Shown: in pieces, positions 2,560 through 34,177 of the stretch
Layout of the letters: the number at the start of each line of letters is the position of its first letter
Position numbering within the stretch: the first letter of the stretch is position 1
IMG/VR virus record: IMGVR_UViG_2529292726_000021
From: a virus
Lineage: Duplodnaviria; Heunggongvirae; Uroviricota; Caudoviricetes
DNA: 42,272 bases
Strand: one strand, 5' to 3'
Notes under the pieces: model-generated
The model's database searches: none
What the model was told of the DNA's origin: nothing
The model's input: only the letters and a program-made list of their open reading frames with translations
Program-made: the position numbers and the translations under genes

Positions 2560-3340
2560 CCCGATTTGGTCTAAAAAATTGACGTTTTCACACATCACTT
2601 CTTATACCCGTAATTCTACGCAGCAGATAGCGCCACAGCGTCCAATTTTCACCACAGACGACCCAACACACTACCAACAAAAACACACGCTCAAAATCGC
2701 TCCCGTTGCGTTACATAACCATATAAACAACTTATTTTCAGGCATAACAAAACAACTAAATAACACACATGCCATTCCCAAAAACAACCAACCTCTTTAT
2801 GGCAGGCTACCGAAAAGACCCACCTCTTCTCCCCAGGCTACCGGACAACCAACCTAACTTTCACAGGCAATCCGAAAACATTCATACGCGCGATACCCAC
2901 GACACGCCATTCCCCAAACAGCGAAGAAACACCAGAATCACTGAAACCCCAACGAAGCCTGTAACCGCAAGGATTCTCTCAATCCCAAAAGACACGAAAC
3001 ATAACAATCACGGGAAACGCCATTACCCAATACACGAATAACTACAAAAGCCTTTCACACACTCCAGACAAACAACTCAAACACAATAACGAAAGGAATC
3101 GCCCACCTGCCATTACTCCATACACGGAGAAGAACAATCACCAAAACGACGAGAACACCCCATAGAAGAACCACCGCAAAACGAACGAAACCACATACAC
3201 CGACAGAGAAAACAACACACCCAATTCACCAACAGAAATAGTCGCCGTATAGAACGTTCTGGAAGGAGTGAGCATTAACGCCTATAGAGAGGTTGAGACA
3301 GATAAAACACAACATGTATAGCGAAGAAGCCAGGTATGTA
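2560..3340 (+). other. A+C-rich, G/T-poor strand-asymmetric tract; candidate non-coding transcript or protein-binding region
   Basis: Sampled 60-nt lines are about 80% A+C on the plus strand; degenerate repeats GCCATT(C/A)CCCAA at about 2772, 2908, 3020, 3110; half copy of the early motif (AAGAAAACAAC, 2515-2525) just upstream. Confidence 0.35.
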
Positions 3341-3353
3341 TAAGTGGGGAGGG

Positions 3354-3378
3354 AAGGAGGGGTGTCGCCTCCTTTTTC
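3354..3378 (+). terminator. candidate terminator hairpin at end of the A+C tract
   Basis: AAGGAGG-ggtgtcg-CCTCCTT followed by a T run; preceded by G-run GGGGAGGGAAGGAGGGG. Confidence 0.4.
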
Positions 3379-3440
3379 GTATTTATTCAACTCCTGATTT
3401 TATCCCCCCGTAACACCCCTACGGTCAGCCTTCGGTCCAT

Positions 3441-3580
3441 ACAGGGAAAAGGTTGCATCCCGCTACAGAAACGGCTGGGTTGCCTTCGGGGAACGGCTGG
3501 AGGTTTTCAGGGAAACGGTCGAGTTGCCTGTGTGGATTTCGGGAAAAGGCTCGATGCCGGTTCAGGAACGGTGGCGTACC
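3441..3580. repeat. iteron-like direct repeat array 1 (six ~21-23 bp imperfect units)
   Basis: Units GGGAAAAGGTTG, AGAAACGGCTGG, GGGGAACGGCTGG, GGGAAACGGTCG, GGGAAAAGGCTCG, GGAACGGTGGCG spaced about two helical turns apart. Confidence 0.6.
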
Positions 3581-3888: not shown

Positions 3889-3927
3889 GCGATAATAACA
3901 CCATCAAGAAAACATGTTGTTTAAGGA
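3889..3927 (+). promoter_or_regulatory. early promoter/leader module, copy
   Basis: GCGATAATAACACCATC followed by AAGAAAACAtgTTGTTTAAGGA; ATG at 3935. Confidence 0.5.
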
Positions 3928-3934
3928 TTGCTTT

Positions 3935-4264
3935 ATGTTTGCAAATATCGACATCAACCAAATCAAGAAAATGACTCAAAAAGAGTTTGACCAGTTTTAT
4001 GAGCTGGAAGGTTGGTCTTCCACTCTGATTAATTCAAGATGGGTGCTGGAACTGATGACTCGTGATGACGCACCTGCTTTGATGATCAGCGACCTGGGTG
4101 AAGATGCTGACTTTATGGATATGAGCGAATTTTGTGTGGACACATACAACCGCAGCCAGAAGTACTACTTCACATGCGATAGCGAAAATGACGTGATTTC
4201 TAAGGTCTATCTTCACCTCGTCCAGCATTGGGACGTTCAGGACTTCCTTGAGATGTTCGCGTAA
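3935..4264 (+). CDS. hypothetical small acidic protein (109 aa)
   Basis: Start moved from track ATG 3914 (inside the motif) to ATG 3935, which has AAGGA 8 nt upstream. Confidence 0.55.
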   Translation: MFANIDINQIKKMTQKEFDQFYELEGWSSTLINSRWVLELMTRDDAPALMISDLGEDADFMDMSEFCVDTYNRSQKYYFTCDSENDVISKVYLHLVQHWDVQDFLEMFA

Positions 4265-4373: not shown

Positions 4374-4412
4374 TATTATTTACGCCATTGAGAAAACAAG
4401 TTGTTTACGGAG
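4374..4412 (+). promoter_or_regulatory. early promoter/leader module, copy
   Basis: GAGAAAACAAGTTGTTTACGGAG immediately before ATG 4418. Confidence 0.5.
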
Positions 4413-5296: not shown

Positions 5297-5359
5297 TAAC
5301 AATTTGTTTTCTACCTTATCTACACTGCGATAATTACAACAACAAGAAAACAAGAGGAA
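5297..5359 (+). promoter_or_regulatory. early promoter/leader module, copy
   Basis: ATAACAAtTTGTTTTCTACC (5297-5315), GATAAT (5329-5334), AAGAAAACAAGAGG (5345-5358); ATG 5365. Confidence 0.5.
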
Positions 5360-6030: not shown

Positions 6031-6090
6031 TTGACGCCTTATTCGTACAACGATAATTAACACCAACAAGAAAACAATTTGTTATTTACG
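6031..6090 (+). promoter_or_regulatory. early promoter/leader module, copy with sigma70-like -35
   Basis: TTGACG (6031-6036), 17 bp, TAATTA within CGATAATTAACACCAAC, then AAGAAAACAAtTTGTTATTTACG (6068-6090); ATG 6105. Confidence 0.55.
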
Positions 6091-12204: not shown

Positions 12205-13764
12205 CTAATCTCGTTTCAGAACTCCAAAATCGAATGCGCCATCAATAGGCAATACACCTTCCGCAAAGCCAGGTGTGGTGTCGATGATGTGTTTTCGCTC
12301 ATAAGAGTGAGACAACAGGTATTTGTTGCTAATGTCAATGAAATCAGTGATAAAACACACGTTTGCCTGATTCTTCTTGGCTCGTAAGCCACGACCGACA
12401 CGCTGCCTCATTTCAACTTCTGCTTTCCCACCACCAGCAAGAATGACCGCACCAACGCTTGGCACATCAACACCGACATCCAGAATAGTCGAGCCTATTA
12501 AAACATCTATTTCGCCAGACGCTAAACTGTTCAGCTTTGCTTGCCTTGTCGACTGGTTCGATTCCCCATAAATGAAGTCAACTCTAAGGCCGGACTCTTT
12601 CATCATTTCCATCAGGATTTGCCCGTGGCGTTTAAGACGAACCAGAGTCATACAATTGAGAGAATGTTGCTTATAGAGCAATGCTTCGCGAACAATGGCC
12701 TCATTACGTCCCAAATTATACACGATCCCCAACTGATAAGCCTTTTGGTAGGCGGTGCTCATACCAACTCTAAAATTGAGGTGTTTGTTGGCAAGTTCTG
12801 CCTTGATTCTGGCCTCGTCCGGCTTGTAGGCAACTTTATGATAAAGGAAGTATGGTTTTGCCAGAATGCCTCGATCAATCAGGTACTTTTCTGTGACTTT
12901 AATTTCAATTCGCCCGGCCACAGCCATCAGACGCATGTTGGCTTCTGTAGAATCCTTCATGAACGGCGTGGCCGTAAGCGCCAGACGATAGTCTGCGTTC
13001 ACACATAATCTGGCAATGTCATAGAAATTAGAACCTGAAGACTCATGCGCCTCTTCCAGAATAAGCAGAGACACACTTGAAAGGAAGCGTTTCACCAAGT
13101 CCCGACGTTTGAGGTGGTAGCTCTTCTTATCTGGAGTTGCATCGCGTGGTGGTTCTTCAAGGAAACTTGCCAGAGTTTGAACTGTAGCGACGTTGATATG
13201 TCGTGATACCTGGAACTCACCAGAGCCAATGACTCCAACCTTTTGGTCTTTTAACCACGGTTCGCCATTTTCGGCGCGGTAGTCGATGGATCTCTGGAAG
13301 TTTTCGGCCATCTGAAACATCAGAACAGAGCGAGTTGTTAAAAATAATGTCATTCGACCGATACGTGCAGCCGCTTTGCAGGCAACATTAGATTTCCCGC
13401 CACCAGTAGCGATCTGCGCAATCATCATTCCCTCTCGAACCAGTGTTTCCACAGTCTGATCCTGATACGCATAATCAGGATTGTATGGGAATGGGTTAAC
13501 CGCCGGATTTGGTTTACCAAGCGCCGGGGCTTTGTCTTTGCGGATATGAACACATTTGATGCCCGCCTTGTTCAAGTTCGCCGCTACAGGCTTGGCAAAG
13601 CCAGCAGGGAACGAGTTTTTACTCCAGTTGAACATTGTGCTTGTGCCCTTCCAGTCGCCAGTCTCGACTTCGTAGCTCAACATCTGTTGCACCAGTTGCT
13701 TTACCTTGTCATCTGCGCCAGAAATAAGCGCATTAACTGCGTTAGATACAATCCGAACAGTCAT
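12205..13764 (-). CDS. superfamily 2 DNA helicase (DEAH-type)
   Basis: Motif I ATGGGKS, motif II LEEAH, motif III TATP, motif VI RVGRGLR in order; AAGGAAAGAGG upstream of ATG. Confidence 0.75.
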   Translation of the reverse strand: MTVRIVSNAVNALISGADDKVKQLVQQMLSYEVETGDWKGTSTMFNWSKNSFPAGFAKPVAANLNKAGIKCVHIRKDKAPALGKPNPAVNPFPYNPDYAYQDQTVETLVREGMMIAQIATGGGKSNVACKAAARIGRMTLFLTTRSVLMFQMAENFQRSIDYRAENGEPWLKDQKVGVIGSGEFQVSRHINVATVQTLASFLEEPPRDATPDKKSYHLKRRDLVKRFLSSVSLLILEEAHESSGSNFYDIARLCVNADYRLALTATPFMKDSTEANMRLMAVAGRIEIKVTEKYLIDRGILAKPYFLYHKVAYKPDEARIKAELANKHLNFRVGMSTAYQKAYQLGIVYNLGRNEAIVREALLYKQHSLNCMTLVRLKRHGQILMEMMKESGLRVDFIYGESNQSTRQAKLNSLASGEIDVLIGSTILDVGVDVPSVGAVILAGGGKAEVEMRQRVGRGLRAKKNQANVCFITDFIDISNKYLLSHSYERKHIIDTTPGFAEGVLPIDGAFDFGVLKRD

Positions 13765-13846
13765 AAACCTCTTTCCTTAGTGCCTTTTGTATGTTATTTG
13801 GCTATTATAATAAGTAAGTGATTACTTAGTGGATTGTAGCAATAAA

Positions 13847-14527
13847 ATGGATGTAAAAATCACGATTTTGCAGGTTGATGTTGCCAACCTTCGCCCGAAT
13901 ACCTGGAACACCAATTCGGTTGGTGCGCAGAATTTTGAAAAACTGAAAGGTTCTATCGAAAAATTGGGCTTTTTTAAGCCAATTTTGGCTCGTGAACTTG
14001 AAGATGGATTTTTTGAAATCCTCGGCGGCGAACATCGCTGGCGTGCCGCTATTGAGCAAGGAATTTCAACGGTTCCAGTGCTTTCTGTGGGCAAAATTAG
14101 CGATGTCGTAGCTAAACAGATGTCACTGGTGGACAACGAGCGATACGGTGAAGACGACCAAATCGCATTGCAACGCTTCATTGAAGAAATTCAGTCAGAA
14201 CTTGACTATCAACTGTCTGAAATCGCCCCGTATGACGACGAAATCTCGATGGTTTTAGCAAAAGAGGCGGCAATCGACCTTGAAGCACTGGAGGCGTTGT
14301 CTCGTGGTAGTGATGAGCCTGTCGATACCGACAAACGAGAGAAAACCGAACGTGTCGGTGCGGAACATCAGACCATGCGCTTCAAAGTAACTTTCGATGC
14401 GTCAGATCGCGTTGCAGAAACCATAAAAAACATCATCAAAGAGCAGGCTATTAACACCGGTAATGAAATGGAGAACGCTGGTGAGGCTCTGGTGTGGCTG
14501 GTCGACTACTACAAGGAGCGTATGTAA
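13847..14527 (+). CDS. ParB-like N-terminal domain protein
   Basis: GGEHRWRAA resembles the ParB/sulfiredoxin GxxRxxA box; start ambiguous (GTG 13829 or ATG 13847). Confidence 0.55.
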   Translation: MDVKITILQVDVANLRPNTWNTNSVGAQNFEKLKGSIEKLGFFKPILARELEDGFFEILGGEHRWRAAIEQGISTVPVLSVGKISDVVAKQMSLVDNERYGEDDQIALQRFIEEIQSELDYQLSEIAPYDDEISMVLAKEAAIDLEALEALSRGSDEPVDTDKREKTERVGAEHQTMRFKVTFDASDRVAETIKNIIKEQAINTGNEMENAGEALVWLVDYYKERM

Positions 14528-15195
14528 TGACCAAAAAGTTTGAAATCGTATATCGCGACCCGGCAGATCTTATTCCCTATGAGATGAATGCCAAAAAGCA
14601 TGATGAACAGCAGATCAGAGATCTGGCCGCAGCCATTAAAAAGCGCGGATTTGACCAGCCAATTACGGTCGATAAGAACGACGTAATTATTACTGGCCAC
14701 GGCCTCCGTGAGGCTGCAATTTTTGCTGGACTTGAGCGCGTACCGGTTATTGTTCGTGATGATCTGAGTGATGACGAGGTACGTGCAAAGCGCCTTGAAG
14801 ATAACCGACTTGCCAGCATTGATTACGATGCAATTAAGCTACAGAAAGAGCTTGAGTCGCTTGTTCTGGACGATATCGAGGTTTTCGGCTTCGAAGAGCG
14901 TGAGTTGAATGTTCTCGTTGGCAGTATGACAGAAGAAATGGACACCGACTCGCTAGTTATCGATCTTGGCGAAGAAACTAAACGACAGAAGGATGAACAC
15001 ACCGAGATCAGTCGTGAAGTTGCAGCGGAAGAAGTACGTGTTGTCGACGTATTGGGCTTTAAAACGCTTCCTGCTGGCTCTGCCATTGTTGTTGGTGATT
15101 TGCTTGCCCACATGGAAGAAATGACGGGAGAAAGCGGGGTAGACGCATTTGTGGCATATGCGGAGAAGATCTCTTCCGGGGAGATGGCTGCATGA
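14527..15195 (+). CDS. second ParB-like domain protein
   Basis: TGHGLREAA box; ATG overlaps the preceding stop (TAATG); track start 14494 would overlap the upstream gene. Confidence 0.5.
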   Translation: MTKKFEIVYRDPADLIPYEMNAKKHDEQQIRDLAAAIKKRGFDQPITVDKNDVIITGHGLREAAIFAGLERVPVIVRDDLSDDEVRAKRLEDNRLASIDYDAIKLQKELESLVLDDIEVFGFEERELNVLVGSMTEEMDTDSLVIDLGEETKRQKDEHTEISREVAAEEVRVVDVLGFKTLPAGSAIVVGDLLAHMEEMTGESGVDAFVAYAEKISSGEMAA

Positions 15196-15857
15196 GCAAA
15201 TACATCATCAACGTATCGTTTCAGACACGCGTAAATAAAACCACGCGCACGTTGGAAATCGCTGAGTCGTTCGGGCTTGGCCTGGACGAAAAAGAGTGGA
15301 CGCTTTACGACAATCTGGAGCTGGAAGTGAAGCAGGGCGATGTGGTGTACATCACCGGCCAATCCGGTTCCGGCAAATCCGTTGTGCTGCGCGAGTTGCA
15401 ACGACAGATGAAGGATGAAGGGCTGTCTGTAGCCTCCATCGATGATTTTACCTTCGATAATGAGGTTAACGTCATCGATCAGTTGGGCAAAACGACCAGT
15501 GATGCGCTTGGGTTGTTATCTATGGCTGGTCTGAACGATGCATATCTGTTTGTTCGCAAGCCTTCTGAAATGTCAGACGGCCAGAAATATCGTCTCAAGA
15601 TTGCCAAACTGATTGAGTCAGGCGCTAAAGTATGGGCTGCTGACGAGTTCGGCGCTGTTCTAGACCGTGTAACCGCTCAGGTTGTGGCGTCTAACCTCCA
15701 GCGTGCCGCTCGAAAGGTTGGTGCGACGGTAATGGTGGCGACGACTCACGAAGACCTGAAGAACGCGCTGCGCCCGGATATGCAGATCACCAAGCACTAC
15801 AAAGAACGCGTGAAGGTGGAATATCACAATGGTAGTCATGATGAGGTCCATTCATGA
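15192..15857 (+). CDS. compact ABC-type ATPase (221 aa)
   Basis: Walker A GQSGSGKS, signature-like SDGQ, Walker B VWAADEFG, H-loop ATTHED; ATGA overlap with upstream gene. Confidence 0.65.
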   Translation: MSKYIINVSFQTRVNKTTRTLEIAESFGLGLDEKEWTLYDNLELEVKQGDVVYITGQSGSGKSVVLRELQRQMKDEGLSVASIDDFTFDNEVNVIDQLGKTTSDALGLLSMAGLNDAYLFVRKPSEMSDGQKYRLKIAKLIESGAKVWAADEFGAVLDRVTAQVVASNLQRAARKVGATVMVATTHEDLKNALRPDMQITKHYKERVKVEYHNGSHDEVHS

Positions 15858-16744
15858 CGGACATCATCATTAAACGCTACCGCCCTGAAGAGTTTCCGCG
15901 TCATCTGGACTTTCTGGAGCGAATGACTGTTACAAAGGGAACTGTAGAGGACTGGCACGCTCTTAAGTCGCTTCACTACAAAACAGACGGCAAACCTTTC
16001 GCGCCAACTTACTATCGCTGCGAACTTGATGACCGTCTGGTGGGCGTCGTGGTTATGGCTTACCCGAAACTACTGCTGGCACCTCGCCACCGCATGTTTC
16101 CTAAGTTGAAACCAACCACTAATACCACCGTGGCTAACCAGTACTGGGGTCGGTACGTGAATAACAACTTTGCGGTGATCAGTCGCTCAGTTGTGGATAC
16201 TCAGTATCGTGGCGTAGGCGTCTCTTATCGAATGATTAACCTGGTTAGCAGGATGCATGACCGGCCAATCATTGAGATCCAGTCCTCGATGAGCAAATAC
16301 AATCCCTTCGCCATGAAAGCAGGGTTTAAGTTCATCCGCCCTGAGCGACCGAAGAGCTATGAAAGTGCACTGCGTGTATTCCAGCGCCATTTTCGTTCCG
16401 ACCCGGGTGATAACGAGGCGATCGTCAAAGAGTTGTTCGCAATGAGCGAGTCTCGTCGTCGCCGTGCACTGCGTGATCTGGTGGCGGACTACCATAAGAA
16501 CAGTTCCCTGGCAAAAGCTGGGCGGAATCGTGGCACGACGATTCAGGACATTGCCGACAGTCTGGTGGACGAGGCCAGCATTGTGAAGTTGCTCAAGGAC
16601 ATTCACAACCTGAGCTTTACGTCTCCGTTGTATGGGGTGTATCGAAACCCTGACTTTGGTCGTCGACTGCCTGACACGCTGCCACTGCTGGCATTCGACA
16701 AACAACCTTTGGATAAACCGTTAGAAATTGCTTTACCGGCATAA
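15854..16744 (+). CDS. GNAT-like acetyltransferase-fold protein with C-terminal extension (296 aa)
   Basis: VVDTQYRGVGVSYRMINLV fits GNAT motif A (Q/R-x-x-G-x-G/A); ATGA overlap with the ATPase gene. Confidence 0.45.
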   Translation: MTDIIIKRYRPEEFPRHLDFLERMTVTKGTVEDWHALKSLHYKTDGKPFAPTYYRCELDDRLVGVVVMAYPKLLLAPRHRMFPKLKPTTNTTVANQYWGRYVNNNFAVISRSVVDTQYRGVGVSYRMINLVSRMHDRPIIEIQSSMSKYNPFAMKAGFKFIRPERPKSYESALRVFQRHFRSDPGDNEAIVKELFAMSESRRRRALRDLVADYHKNSSLAKAGRNRGTTIQDIADSLVDEASIVKLLKDIHNLSFTSPLYGVYRNPDFGRRLPDTLPLLAFDKQPLDKPLEIALPA

Positions 16745-16753
16745 GGATTTGCC

Positions 16754-17020
16754 ATGACGTTAACCGATAAACAAAAGGACATCATCAAAACGCTCAATCT
16801 CGGTTATGAGCGAGGTCATCTACTTGATCTGGACGAATTGCTTGAAGTTTTGCCGTACAAGACAACCAAGCAAAGTATCCAGTTCTCAATTCGCGCTCTG
16901 ATAAAAAAGGGGCTTGTGGAGAAAGGGCATACGCGCCAACGCAGTGACAATCGCTATCACCGCCGAACTCTTGGGTTAACCACTTTAGGTCGAGCCAAAG
17001 CGAAGTTACTGGTGATGTAA
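16754..17020 (+). CDS. small basic protein, possible winged-helix DNA-binding protein (88 aa)
   Basis: ATG with AAGGA upstream; basic C-terminus; fold assignment is a guess. Confidence 0.45.
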   Translation: MTLTDKQKDIIKTLNLGYERGHLLDLDELLEVLPYKTTKQSIQFSIRALIKKGLVEKGHTRQRSDNRYHRRTLGLTTLGRAKAKLLVM

Positions 17021-17022
17021 TC

Positions 17023-17121
17023 GGTCTGGGAGCTTATTTAAAGACCTGCTTCTGTATATATAAATAATAAGTAACTTATTAAATATATACGGAAGCAGGC
17101 TTAATAAGACATGCCCAGACC
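17023..17121. repeat. ~100-bp imperfect inverted repeat
   Basis: Outer arms GGTCTGGG / CCCAGACC; inner arms CCTGCTTCtGTATATAT / ATATACgGAAGCAGG around central AATAAGTAACTTATT. Confidence 0.6.
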
Positions 17122-17134
17122 TAATTAAACACCC

Positions 17135-17196
17135 CAGAAAACAAGTTGGTTAGCATACGCAGTAAACAAGTTGTTTTAGAGCGCATGGACGCGCTC
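17135..17196 (+). promoter_or_regulatory. tandem early-type motifs plus hairpin upstream of terminase genes
   Basis: CAGAAAACAAGTTGGTTAG (17135-17153), GTAAACAAGTTGTTTTAGAG (17162-17181), then GAGCGC-atggac-GCGCTC hairpin. Confidence 0.5.
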
Positions 17197-17216
17197 TGTG
17201 TGTTTTAGAGGGATCT

Positions 17217-17849
17217 ATGACGGTCGAAAAAGACGAGGTAAAAACTCGCCTGACACCAGCGGAGTGGGCCGAAGCTGAAGCCAAATGGACGTCAGGCGAA
17301 TATACACTCTCAAAGCTGGAGGAAGAGTACGGCATTCGTCGTGAAACACTCTCCAGACATTTCAAAAAGCGAGGATTAGAGAAAGGCGCGGACTCTGTTG
17401 GGAAGATGGTTCGTGAGTCTCTTAAATCTGACGCAGAGCTTCGCGCTAAAGCCCGTGCGGAAAAGATAGAAGAACGTCGTACACGTTATGACGGCTGGGC
17501 GTATGCGTTGGGGCAGATGGTGATGGTCGAAGTCACTACGGCCAAACGTGAGGGTAAGTCTTTAGGGGCGATTGAGGATTCTCTCAAGAGCTTACAGAGA
17601 GCCAGTAATACCCTTGCAAAATGCTTTGAAGTTTCGTCCAAAGCATTGGGCATGGATCATGCGGAAAATGACGAGGAAGAAATTCCGAACCTGGTATTTG
17701 GTGAGCTTACGCCTTCCCAGGTGGCGAAATTACGTCAGGAAGACGACGAGCCTGAAATCATCGATGACGAATTGCTTGAGACGTTGGAAGAAGAAGCTCT
17801 AAGCGAATTTGATGCGACAGATGATGGAAGTGAAGGGGAGGACGAATAA
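17217..17849 (+). CDS. terminase small subunit (putative)
   Basis: N-terminal HTH-like segment (TLSKLEEEYGIRRETLSRHFKKRG), acidic C-terminal tail, stop overlaps start of the large subunit. Confidence 0.6.
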   Translation: MTVEKDEVKTRLTPAEWAEAEAKWTSGEYTLSKLEEEYGIRRETLSRHFKKRGLEKGADSVGKMVRESLKSDAELRAKARAEKIEERRTRYDGWAYALGQMVMVEVTTAKREGKSLGAIEDSLKSLQRASNTLAKCFEVSSKALGMDHAENDEEEIPNLVFGELTPSQVAKLRQEDDEPEIIDDELLETLEEEALSEFDATDDGSEGEDE

Positions 17850-19105
17850 TGGCAATCCCGTCCTCGCTCAGTCTTGTGCAACTGCATTCTGGACAGATGA
17901 AAGTCTTCCAGTCTCCGCATCGATTTAAAGTTGTTTGTGCTGGTCGACGCTGGGGAAAATCCCGGTTGTCGATCTCCACTATTATTCGTGCGGCGGCAAA
18001 GGAAAAAAAGCAAAGGGTCTGGTATGTCGCTCCTACTTACCAGATGGCTCGCCAGATTTTGTGGGACGATCTACAGGAAGTTCTGCCTCGTAAGTGGGTT
18101 AGGAAAAAGAACGACACCACGATGACAATCGTGTTGAAGAACGGTTCGGAGATCGCCCTCAAAGGTGCTGATAAGCCTGACACTCTGCGCGGCGTAGCGT
18201 TGCATTTTGTAGTGCTTGATGAATTTCAGGATATGAAGGCTGACACCTGGTACAAGGTGTTACGACCTACTCTTTCATCGACACGCGGCGGTGCACTGAT
18301 CATTGGTACGCCAAAAGGCTTCTCGGAATTTCACAAACTGTGGACTATAGGCCAGAACGTAGAGCTGCAAAGAAAGGGACAGTGGAAGAGCTGGCAGTTT
18401 GTAACTGCCGATTCTCCGTTTGTGCCTACGGCGGAAATTGAAGCTGCTAAGAACGATATGGACCCGAAATCGTTCGCTCAGGAGTACCTGGCGAGCTTTG
18501 AGAACATGTCCGGGCGCGTTTACTACCCGTTCGATCGTAACGTGCATGTAAAACCGCTTCAGTTCAACCCTCGGTTGCCTATATGGGTAGGGCAGGACTT
18601 CAACATTGACCCGATGTCTTCAGTAATTTTGCAACCTCAGCCAAATGGTGAGCTATGGGCAATTGATGAATTGGTGCTCTTTTCCTCTAACACGGCAGAA
18701 GTTTGTGATGAGCTTGAGAGACGCTTCTGGCGCTGGAAATCACAGATAACGGTATTTCCAGATCCGGCAGGTGCTTATCGCCAACATGCTCGCGGGGAGT
18801 CTGACGTCGACATATTCAAAGAGAAGGGATTCTTACGTGTCGATTATTCGAAAAAGCCCCCGCCAATTGCGGATCGTGTTAATGCTGTTAACCGAATGCT
18901 GATGACCGCATCTGGAGATATCCGGCTGTATATCGATCCGAAGTGCAAGCATTTGATTGATTCACTGGAAAAAGTCATCTACAAGCCTGGAACACGAGAT
19001 ATGGATAAGACAGGTGGCATTGAGCATAGTGCAGACGCATTGGGCTATCCAGTACATCGTAGGTATCCAGTCAAAAACCGTGTTATTCTTGGTGGCTCTC
19101 GATAG
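17849..19105 (+). CDS. terminase large subunit
   Basis: Walker A-like GRRWGKS, Walker B VVLDEF, size 418 aa, position before portal. Confidence 0.85.
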   Translation: MAIPSSLSLVQLHSGQMKVFQSPHRFKVVCAGRRWGKSRLSISTIIRAAAKEKKQRVWYVAPTYQMARQILWDDLQEVLPRKWVRKKNDTTMTIVLKNGSEIALKGADKPDTLRGVALHFVVLDEFQDMKADTWYKVLRPTLSSTRGGALIIGTPKGFSEFHKLWTIGQNVELQRKGQWKSWQFVTADSPFVPTAEIEAAKNDMDPKSFAQEYLASFENMSGRVYYPFDRNVHVKPLQFNPRLPIWVGQDFNIDPMSSVILQPQPNGELWAIDELVLFSSNTAEVCDELERRFWRWKSQITVFPDPAGAYRQHARGESDVDIFKEKGFLRVDYSKKPPPIADRVNAVNRMLMTASGDIRLYIDPKCKHLIDSLEKVIYKPGTRDMDKTGGIEHSADALGYPVHRRYPVKNRVILGGSR

Positions 19106-33387: not shown

Positions 33388-34177
33388 TAAAGCAATCCCT
33401 GAGCTTGGCTCTGATGTTATGCAGCAAATCTATCTCTGCGCCATAAATCGCTACCCTAATGAAGCGTGTGGCTTTCTGGTGAGAACTAATGGCGACAAAT
33501 ATCGCTTTATGGAAGCGCGAAATGTTTCGGAGAACCCGCAGAACACTTTTGTAATGCACGTTGACGACATTATGGCGGCAGAGGATGCGGGTGATGTTAT
33601 CGCAATCTGGCATTCACATACTGATGAATCAGCAGAAGCATCTGATGCCGATCGTGCAGGCTGTGAAGCGACGGAAGTTCCGTGGATGATTCTGGCTATT
33701 CGCAAGAATGTTGAGGGAGATGCCCCTTTCCATTTTAGCGAGATGAATGTGATCACACCTGATGGTTTCGAAATGCCATACCTGGGTAGACCGTATGTAT
33801 TTGGCGTATTCGATTGCTGGATGTTGTGTCGGGACTATTTGAAGCGTGAGTTTAACGTCGAACTAAACCCGAACGCACACCTGCATATTCCATCGTGGTA
33901 CACCGGCGATAACGACATTCTCGATCAGAACTACCGTAACGAGGGATTGGTGCGTCTTGCGCCCGGAACAGAGCCTCAACGTGGGGACGTATTCTTTATC
34001 CAATACGGGAAAATGCCTGACCACTGCGCGGTTTATATCGGCGATGGAATGATTCTTCATCACCAGATCGACCGCCTAAGTTGTCGTGCTTATTACGGCG
34101 GAATGTATCAGAAACATACGACGCATCACTTGCGTCACAGAGACTTGCTCAAGGGAGATGAGACGTGTCTGAGTTAG
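33380..34177 (+). CDS. tail assembly protein, lambda gpK-like (JAMM/MPN plus NlpC/P60)
   Basis: Exact JAMM motif HSHTDESAEASDAD (H-x-H-x7-S-x2-D); downstream Cys and His consistent with NlpC/P60; ATG overlaps the end of the L-like gene. Confidence 0.8.
   Translation: MGNKAIPELGSDVMQQIYLCAINRYPNEACGFLVRTNGDKYRFMEARNVSENPQNTFVMHVDDIMAAEDAGDVIAIWHSHTDESAEASDADRAGCEATEVPWMILAIRKNVEGDAPFHFSEMNVITPDGFEMPYLGRPYVFGVFDCWMLCRDYLKREFNVELNPNAHLHIPSWYTGDNDILDQNYRNEGLVRLAPGTEPQRGDVFFIQYGKMPDHCAVYIGDGMILHHQIDRLSCRAYYGGMYQKHTTHHLRHRDLLKGDETCLS

Follow-up and report, generated by a model that had tools for sequence, protein, structure and literature searches.

A palindrome ahead of the terminase genes of an SSU5-type phage-plasmid as one copy of a possible block-head control or boundary element

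The DNA analyzed here (42,272 nucleotides (nt); IMG/VR record IMGVR_UViG_2529292726_000021, Caudoviricetes) is referred to as the window and carries an imperfect palindrome, P1, directly ahead of the genes for a terS-like protein and the large terminase subunit (TerL). The core of this palindrome recurs at two further gene boundaries, P2 and P3, in related genomes, and we tentatively assign P1 as one copy of a multi-copy factor-recognition or boundary element that stands at the heads of lytic gene blocks. The window region is 99% identical to CP053388 (plasmids named 'Escherichia phage CMS-2020a') and 98% identical to PhiR41_1; identity to Salmonella phage SSU5 and its Klebsiella relatives is 75-77%. 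Judged by these identities, the window is part of an SSU5-type phage-plasmid of ~108 kb. Among the relatives of SSU5 are pHCM2-type plasmids and resistance carriers, such as pECOH89 (PMC3999498). The palindrome region is matched by ~800 plasmid records in PLSDB, nearly all of them SSU5-type, from Klebsiella (313), Escherichia (237), Enterobacter (92), Yersinia pestis (62), Salmonella (49), Citrobacter, and other hosts.

P1 occupies positions 17023-17121 (99 nt, no strand assigned), with arms at 17023-17072 and 17074-17121 around a central A at 17073. Folded as single-stranded DNA, this segment forms 42 base pairs with a free energy of -26.8 kcal/mol. Its dinucleotide shuffles average -6.6 ± 2.1 kcal/mol (z = -9.7), and 0 of 200 were equally stable. 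Folding of a wider stretch, 17015-17130, agrees with this result. The fold shows that the ~100-bp inverted repeat that an initial annotation of the window had placed upstream of the terminase genes is real and correctly positioned. A gapless repeat finder recovers only the inner 16-nt arms, because small indels distinguish the two arms of P1. No second inverted repeat of similar length was found in an inverted-repeat scan of the 42-kb window, and P1 is the sole copy of the core within it.

The 55-nt core consists of CCTGCTTCYGTATATAT, ~21 nt of A/T, and ATATATACRGAAGCAGG. In the window, the left core arm, CCTGCTTCTGTATATAT (17045-17061), and the right core arm, ATATATACGGAAGCAGG (17083-17099), enclose a 21-nt spacer made of A and T only (17062-17082); positions 1-14 of the left core arm are near-invariant over P1, P2, and P3. 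The motif TATAAATA lies on the gene strand at 17059-17066, overlapping the edge of the left core arm and the spacer. The outermost segments are GGTCTGGG on the left (17023-17030) and CCCAGACC on the right (17114-17121), of which the former is the inverted copy of the latter. Across P1 orthologues, the left outer arm is at least 90% conserved and the right outer arm just 60-90%.

SSU5 was scanned for further copies because a few smaller plasmids matched the palindrome alone, in other gene contexts. It holds the 55-nt core three times: across the record ends (P1), at 33458-33513 (P2), and at 78304-78360 (P3). P1 precedes terS, and P2 precedes SSU5_038 and the genes for a DnaB-like helicase and a primase. 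P3 is flanked by a DNA methyltransferase gene and SSU5_089. When IMG/VR was scanned for exact matches to the right arm, more than 120 DNA stretches were recovered, and these contain 113 full palindromes. By their flanks, 45 of the 113 are P1 (terS/phrog_900), 29 are P2 (SSU5_038/DnaB), and 38 are P3 (methyltransferase/SSU5_089), so that all except one (112/113) occupy the three gene contexts. Several near-full-length contigs show P1, P2, and P3 together. Contigs with the exact 99-nt palindrome of the window also bear P2 or P3, and the P2 core of those contigs is identical to the P1 core of the window at 55/55 nt, spacer included. P1 and P2 of SSU5 likewise have lineage-specific spacer bases in common. 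Comparison with the equivalent region of related phages, which the initial annotation had recommended, thus finds P1 kept before terS-terL, but it also finds the core at two sites away from the packaging genes.

The spacing of the three copies to their flanking genes is nearly constant. The median distance from the center of the palindrome to the next start codon is 144 nt for P1, 144 nt for P2, and 136 nt for P3. The distance from the end of the upstream gene to the center is 53-55 nt at P1, and its minimum at P2 and P3 is 53 nt. Downstream, each copy continues with CCCAGACC, 7-8 nt, and ACACC(Y)CCAGAA, which is degenerate in P2. In the window this downstream motif reads ACACCCCAGAAAA (17129-17141, + strand), with ACACCTCCAGAA at P3 and CCACTTCCAAAA at P2 as its counterparts, and it is also similar to the start region of the early promoters of the window. 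P2 and P3 then run on with CTCCAGNCGCT, and -10-like hexamers (TATGAT / TAGAAT) were noted by eye ~100 nt downstream of their centers. P1 instead bears two 13-bp palindromes and a GC hairpin. The core motif is found at several operon heads, as expected for dispersed operators, with three orthologous sites, constant spacing, and extra single arms in other lineages. The smaller plasmids, of 51-96 kb (L005-L008), match a 401-nt query from the P1 region over the palindrome only, and the adjacent terS DNA is unmatched. L006 and L008 have the P3 gene context and L007 the P2 context. The 62-kb E. albertii plasmid p3RM15116 (L005) carries the palindrome at 4001-4089, ahead of a RelE/ParE toxin-antitoxin pair, a context absent from SSU5.

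Whether selection acts on the sequence of the arms or on their pairing was examined by comparing copies. In the E. coli/Salmonella/Klebsiella set, arm positions 1-14 are near-invariant; the rare changes are one-sided and break pairs, and no double-sided changes occur. At arm position 9, the combinations T-G, C-G, T-A, and C-A are all present, at frequencies that are roughly independent. The spacer ranges from 18 to 23 nt and is asymmetric in a conserved direction; of 49 copies, 40 carry TATAAATA on the + (gene) strand and 6 on the - strand. These data suggest that, within this lineage, the sequence is conserved rather than the pairing.

More distant lineages, reached through terS-like homologues of 48-60% identity, keep the gene order and a GC-clamped, A/T-cored inverted repeat before terS, but the sequence of the repeat is different. 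Moellerella pW1-b and Pectobacterium Drgb1 have palindromes at the same three positions as P1-P3. Their arms differ from those of E. coli on both sides (CCTAGCTCCCATAGTAT, and CCGCGCTCCCATAATAT or CCGTGC...), and their spacers are 50-110 nt long. Two-sided changes of this kind fit selection for pairing, although a shared binding factor would look alike. In Moellerella, the P1 hairpin is no better than its shuffles (z = -0.8), whereas the P2 and P3 hairpins are stable. Both genomes also carry partnerless arms, all gene-oriented, intergenic, and ahead of genes. This single, non-palindromic arm, GCCTAGCTCCCATAGTATTTA, is found at 12539 and 38856 of L137, 14221 of L138, and 15266 of L140, ~100-150 nt before the next start codon, with a conserved ATGTAATA(T) ~80-100 nt downstream. 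The retention of single arms is not what a hairpin-only function would predict. Because the arms are conserved, both arms change between lineages, the spacer length is free, the single arms look functional, and pairing is unprotected, the observations point to a trans-acting factor that reads the arm sequence more than to a hairpin acting through its stability alone. Paralogues within Pectobacterium and within Moellerella show apparently 'compensatory' differences, but these did not exceed chance (2/3 matched at one Pectobacterium position) and were not used. In Pectobacterium Drgb1, the annotation places an Hfq-like gene (L140 48354-48575) just downstream of the P2 palindrome, with the SSU5_038 homologue on one side and the gene for the DnaB-like helicase on the other.

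The genes around P1 bear out the arrangement in the initial annotation, in which the palindrome separates a ParB/ATPase/GNAT block from terS. The last gene of the upstream block is an 88-amino acid open reading frame (ORF) of family phrog_900 (16754-17020, + strand; stop codon 17018-17020), and P1 begins 2 nt past its stop codon. This ORF gives a weak hint of a LexA-type winged helix and nothing more in family searches; its synteny is kept in Xenorhabdus, Moellerella, Klebsiella-type, and metagenome loci. Further upstream, directly ahead of the packaging genes, two ParB_N genes are followed by genes for an ABC-type ATPase and an ATPase/acetyltransferase-like protein (13829-16744). The ParB_N pair has no adjacent ParA, and SSU5 has a ParA-like partition protein annotated elsewhere in its genome. 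The block is syntenic across all lineages examined.

Between P1 and terS, the tandem early-type motifs and short GC hairpin described initially are present. RNA folding allows pairing between the two 13-bp operator-like palindromes, AAACAAGTTGGTT (17139-17151) and AAACAAGTTGTTT (17164-17176). The underlying 13-bp motif, AAACAAnTTGTTT, has 15 matches in the window as compared to 5 expected, and in the leaders of six early-region genes (1234-1246, 1285-1297, 3910-3922, 4394-4406, 5297-5309, and 6072-6084) it follows a good -10 element (GATAAT) and precedes the ribosome-binding site. From its sequence and placement, AAACAAnTTGTTT looks like a classical operator of a dimeric regulator, common to the early promoters and the terS leader. 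The GC hairpin, TAGAGCGCATGGACGCGCTCTG followed by TGTGTTTTAG with its T-run (17177-17210, + strand), resembles a terminator and immediately precedes the ribosome-binding site of terS. It is kept among P1 orthologues, and a different hairpin takes its place in the Klebsiella michiganensis-type locus. The 10-mer TGTTTTAGAG is repeated exactly at 17172-17181 and 17201-17210, on either side of this hairpin, and its second copy includes the terS ribosome-binding site. The hairpin may have arisen from an insertion or duplication event.

The terS-like gene (17217-17849, + strand) encodes a DNA-binding protein of family phrog_867, and its stop codon overlaps the start of the TerL gene (17849-19105, + strand), which is followed by the portal gene. 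A structural model of the terS-like protein (pLDDT 75) places a helix-turn-helix (HTH) at the N-terminus, ahead of a long hairpin of helices. No solved structure in the PDB was matched significantly by Foldseek, with the putative TerS 2AO9 reaching just E = 1.8. We infer the TerS role from synteny and architecture, and the HTH/hairpin model is compatible with small terminases.

These observations allow a mechanism to be proposed. The conserved part of each copy is two inverted, GC-clamped 17-bp arms around an A/T-only spacer, and the arms are most likely the recognition sites of an element-encoded DNA-binding factor. The core stands ~54 nt past the last stop codon and ~140 nt ahead of the first start codon at three block heads. 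The blocks headed in this way are the late/packaging block, from terS and terL to portal and beyond; the replication block, from SSU5_038 through the genes for the DnaB-like helicase and the primase and beyond; and a third block after the DNA methyltransferase gene. As a boundary or control module, the element would set each lytic block apart from the block that precedes it and would help decide the firing of the downstream promoter region. At P1, the shared module would be combined with two P1-specific layers, the pair of 13-bp operator-like palindromes and the terminator-like hairpin before terS, thus placing entry to the terS-terL-portal operon under multi-layer control. In this scheme, we infer that a protein binds the arms, which factor it is, and whether regulation is positive or negative. 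Candidate arm binders are the winged-helix-like phrog_900 ORF, the two ParB_N proteins, and the terS-like protein, none of which is linked to the arms. Of the three functions raised initially for the palindrome (packaging initiation, late-operon control, or processing), a late-operon control site fits best, given the fixed distance before the first late gene, the operator-like motifs shared with early promoters, and the terminator-like hairpin downstream. The emphasis on packaging initiation is unsupported in the form in which it was put forward.

A precedent for this arrangement is provided by the C1 operators of phage-plasmid P1, mono- or bivalent 17-bp sites that control ban, repL, lpa, and other genes. 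As in the SSU5-type element, an asymmetric ~17-bp motif occurs at several lytic operon heads, including that of a DnaB-type helicase, either in inverted pairs or singly. In contrast to the C1 operators, which adjoin or overlap, the arms described here have 21-110 nt of A/T between them, lie at least ~100 nt before the coding start, and have no linked repressor. Moreover, it is the separate 13-bp palindrome that looks more like a classical operator here.

Several observations weigh against a control or boundary element read by a shared factor. Family searches identified no binding protein for the arms among the neighboring ORFs, and the ORFs on either side of P1, P2, and P3 gave no informative Pfam or PHROG family. 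Promoter prediction placed no sigma-70 consensus promoter beside any of the copies. The right arms of P2 and P3 run into T-runs (GCAGGTCTTTT, GCAGGCTTTTT), as in plain terminators. Replication origins, too, classically have an A/T core between inverted sites. In the SSU5 and Cyrano records, the opening lies inside P1, possibly at real DNA ends. In addition, the likeness of P1 and P2 within a lineage could persist by gene conversion without a shared factor.

A different explanation, which we regard as unlikely, is that the palindrome is an operon-boundary RNA hairpin transcribed from the upstream block. It would act as an intrinsic, possibly bidirectional, terminator or as an RNase III-type processing site, with arms kept alike by duplication and gene conversion. 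The position of the palindrome, 2 nt past the stop codon at P1 and at the end of every upstream block, is consistent with this function, as is the RNA fold of 17021-17216 (-75 kcal/mol, z = -8.9). The T-runs past the right arms of P2 and P3 also fit, and the identical P1 and P2 cores in the lineage of the window suggest homogenization. Intrinsic terminators and T7-type RNase III sites are similarly stable hairpins that lie exactly between gene blocks on the transcribed strand. However, P1 of the window has no U-run after its stem (GCAGGCUUAAUAAG; next bases CTTAATAAG), and a terminator scan of 16700-17300 gives only the hairpin at 17177-17198. The arms are conserved in sequence across copies and lineages while their pairing is unprotected, as seen from the one-sided, pair-breaking substitutions and the near-independence of the four combinations at position 9. 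Partnerless arms conserved in Moellerella and Pectobacterium, and a Moellerella P1 hairpin no more stable than shuffles, argue further against a function in RNA pairing. Rfam yielded no match at gathering score, only miRNA-precursor models at 18-26 bits against thresholds of 70-211.

The initial annotation had listed P1 as a candidate packaging (pac) region. P1 could be a cohesive-end (cos) or pac site at which terminase starts or cuts. P2 and P3, without the flanking sites specific to P1, would then be look-alikes that are non-functional or length-gated. We consider this reading quite unlikely. P1 is directly upstream of terS-terL in every lineage examined, and its center, 144 nt upstream of the terS-like start, is placed as a pac site would be, next to the small terminase gene. 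The order of symmetric site, repeated motifs, and terS is similar to that of lambda cosN, cosB, and Nu1, in which the small terminase gene also lies ~140-190 nt downstream. The only hint of fixed ends comes from two linear GenBank records, which start at the window equivalents of 17082 (SSU5) and 17083 (Cyrano), at the inner edge of the right core arm and 9-10 nt right of the center. Both records end ...ACTTATTA(A), and lambda database records are likewise opened in the symmetric site.

The record starts, however, may be assembly breaks, as contigs of draft assemblies also break inside the palindromes (L045). When the SSU5 record is joined end to end, it is colinear with its circular relatives, with no base missing or duplicated. 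No SSU5 termini are reported in the literature reached, and the Cyrano paper gives no termini for a record that is apparently oriented like SSU5. Contig ends in IMG/VR, used as stand-ins for virion ends, include none at P1. A cos site would be expected once per genome, whereas the core occurs three times, with two copies well away from the packaging genes. The repeats that look 'cosB-like' are the 13-bp motif of the early promoters, so that neither the core nor its flanking repeats are specific to the packaging region.

The terminase itself also differs from those of cos phages. TerL carries the Pfam signatures Terminase_6N and Terminase_3. Its nearest characterized relatives, at ~25% identity, are those of Jersey/Kagunavirus and T5-like phages, and its nearest solved structures are Thermus P74-26 TerL and T4 gp17. 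These relatives are headful or terminal-repeat packagers rather than cos types. Unlike the lambda system, the SSU5-type element thus has a TerL that is not of the lambda, HK97, or P2 type, and no cohesive ends are documented for it. Vibrio phage 1.228.O, with a TerL of 41% identity, is represented by a partial record and was uninformative. Together, the core at two other sites, the TerL relatives, and the absence of IMG/VR contig ends at P1 weaken the case for a pac region, for which the SSU5 and Cyrano record starts still speak. The P1 palindrome alone is not a packaging-specificity signal, and it is more likely to be a shared block-head control or boundary element than a signal for DNA packaging.

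The palindromes could also be lytic replication origins, in which an A/T-rich unwinding element lies between inverted initiator-binding sites. The pure A/T spacer, clamped by conserved inverted sites and free in length (21 to ~110 nt), has the character of an unwinding region, and P2 lies directly ahead of the SSU5_038-DnaB-primase genes. DnaA-box-like strings (TTTTACACC, GTTTCCACT, TTAAACACC) were noted by eye after each copy. A layout of this kind is known from oriS and oriL of herpes simplex virus 1 (HSV-1), which have an A/T core clamped by inverted sites, occur in three copies between genes, and are hairpin-capable; phage T4 has multiple promoter-linked origins. Nevertheless, three to seven copies are present when the single arms ahead of tail and other genes are counted. 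Both the window and SSU5 show a monotonic cumulative GC skew, without a turn at any SSU5 copy, although this is a weak test for a phage. Unlike HSV-1, the SSU5-type system has no initiator identified, and single arms occur in other lineages. The constant spacing of ~140 nt to the start codon is more typical of a transcription module. An origin function is therefore doubtful.

A broader version of the control hypothesis treats the palindromes as cis sites of a genome-wide switch, through which one element-encoded factor would silence or release all lytic blocks. One candidate factor is one of the two orphan ParB-like proteins encoded beside P1, and the sites could double as lytic origins or, at P1, as a packaging entry. 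In such a switch, the arms would possibly be recognized as an extruded cruciform or hairpin, since the spacer length is free. The KorB operators (OB) of RK2 and the SopB sites of N15 are bound by a ParB-family protein and affect transcription. They resemble the present sites in being palindromes scattered at operon heads, and two ParB_N genes lie just upstream of P1. In contrast, the KorB and SopB sites are short, contiguous palindromes of 13-16 bp, and the ParB-like proteins here are unlinked to the arms. We find a switch on this scale improbable.

A selfish or neutral palindromic repeat, resembling a repetitive extragenic palindromic (REP) sequence or a miniature inverted-repeat transposable element (MITE) and having no role for the element, would account for multiple, intergenic copies that are identical within a genome, but it is highly improbable, as the three positions are orthologous across lineages with terS only 50-60% identical, the spacing to flanking genes is constant, target-site duplications and scattered new insertions are absent, and the ~800 plasmid matches are almost all SSU5-type.

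Other identities were considered for the arms and rejected or not adopted. A protelomerase target (telRL, N15-type) does not fit, as the related plasmids are circular, three copies are present rather than one, and a nearby 519-amino acid ORF is a DEAD-box helicase. No protelomerase gene is annotated in SSU5 (1-100000 and 101800-103299), Moellerella pW1-b (1-100000), or Pectobacterium Drgb1 (1-100000). The arm holds CTGTATAT, reminiscent of a LexA box, but the partner half-site is ~39 nt off, and many copies have CCGT instead. A sigma-54 or extracytoplasmic-function (ECF)-type promoter in the outer arms is not conserved across copies by eye. A T7-type or T4-late-type (TATAAATA) promoter is attractive for the Moellerella right arms (TATAAATACTATGGGAGC), but it was not adopted, as the single arms point the wrong way. 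The portions of SSU5, Moellerella pW1-b, and Pectobacterium Drgb1 covered have no annotated gene for a phage RNA polymerase or a gp55-like protein.

Two further regions of the window stand out in composition or repeat content. On the + strand, a stretch of ~650 nt (~2600-3240) is strongly enriched in A and C and poor in G and T (GC skew -0.45, AT skew +0.54), without tandem repeats or a convincing ORF; the stretch could represent a Rho-utilization-like tract or a long untranslated RNA region. At ~3440-3575, degenerate direct repeats of ~22 nt take the form GGGAAA(A/C)GG(C/T)T(C/G)... and are iteron-like. A hairpin, GGAGGGGTGTCGCCTCC, with a T-run lies ahead of this array at ~3349-3375.

The element described here resembles dispersed operators, palindromic origins, and cos layouts, and it lacks the defining features that were tested for cos sites, terminators, and mobile palindromes. 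No prior description of a conserved, three-position, lineage-specific cis element of this kind was found in the searchable literature, and the arm sequences gave no full-text literature match. For annotation, the results serve as a warning that a palindrome adjacent to terminase genes needs a genome-wide check for further copies before it is labeled pac or cos. SSU5-type phage-plasmids are common in Enterobacterales and clinically widespread. To our knowledge, almost nothing is known about how these elements silence ~80 kb of lytic genes, start lytic replication, or package their DNA. The conserved cis element, fixed at three positions and lineage-specific in sequence, provides concrete targets for mutagenesis, protein pull-down, and end-mapping.

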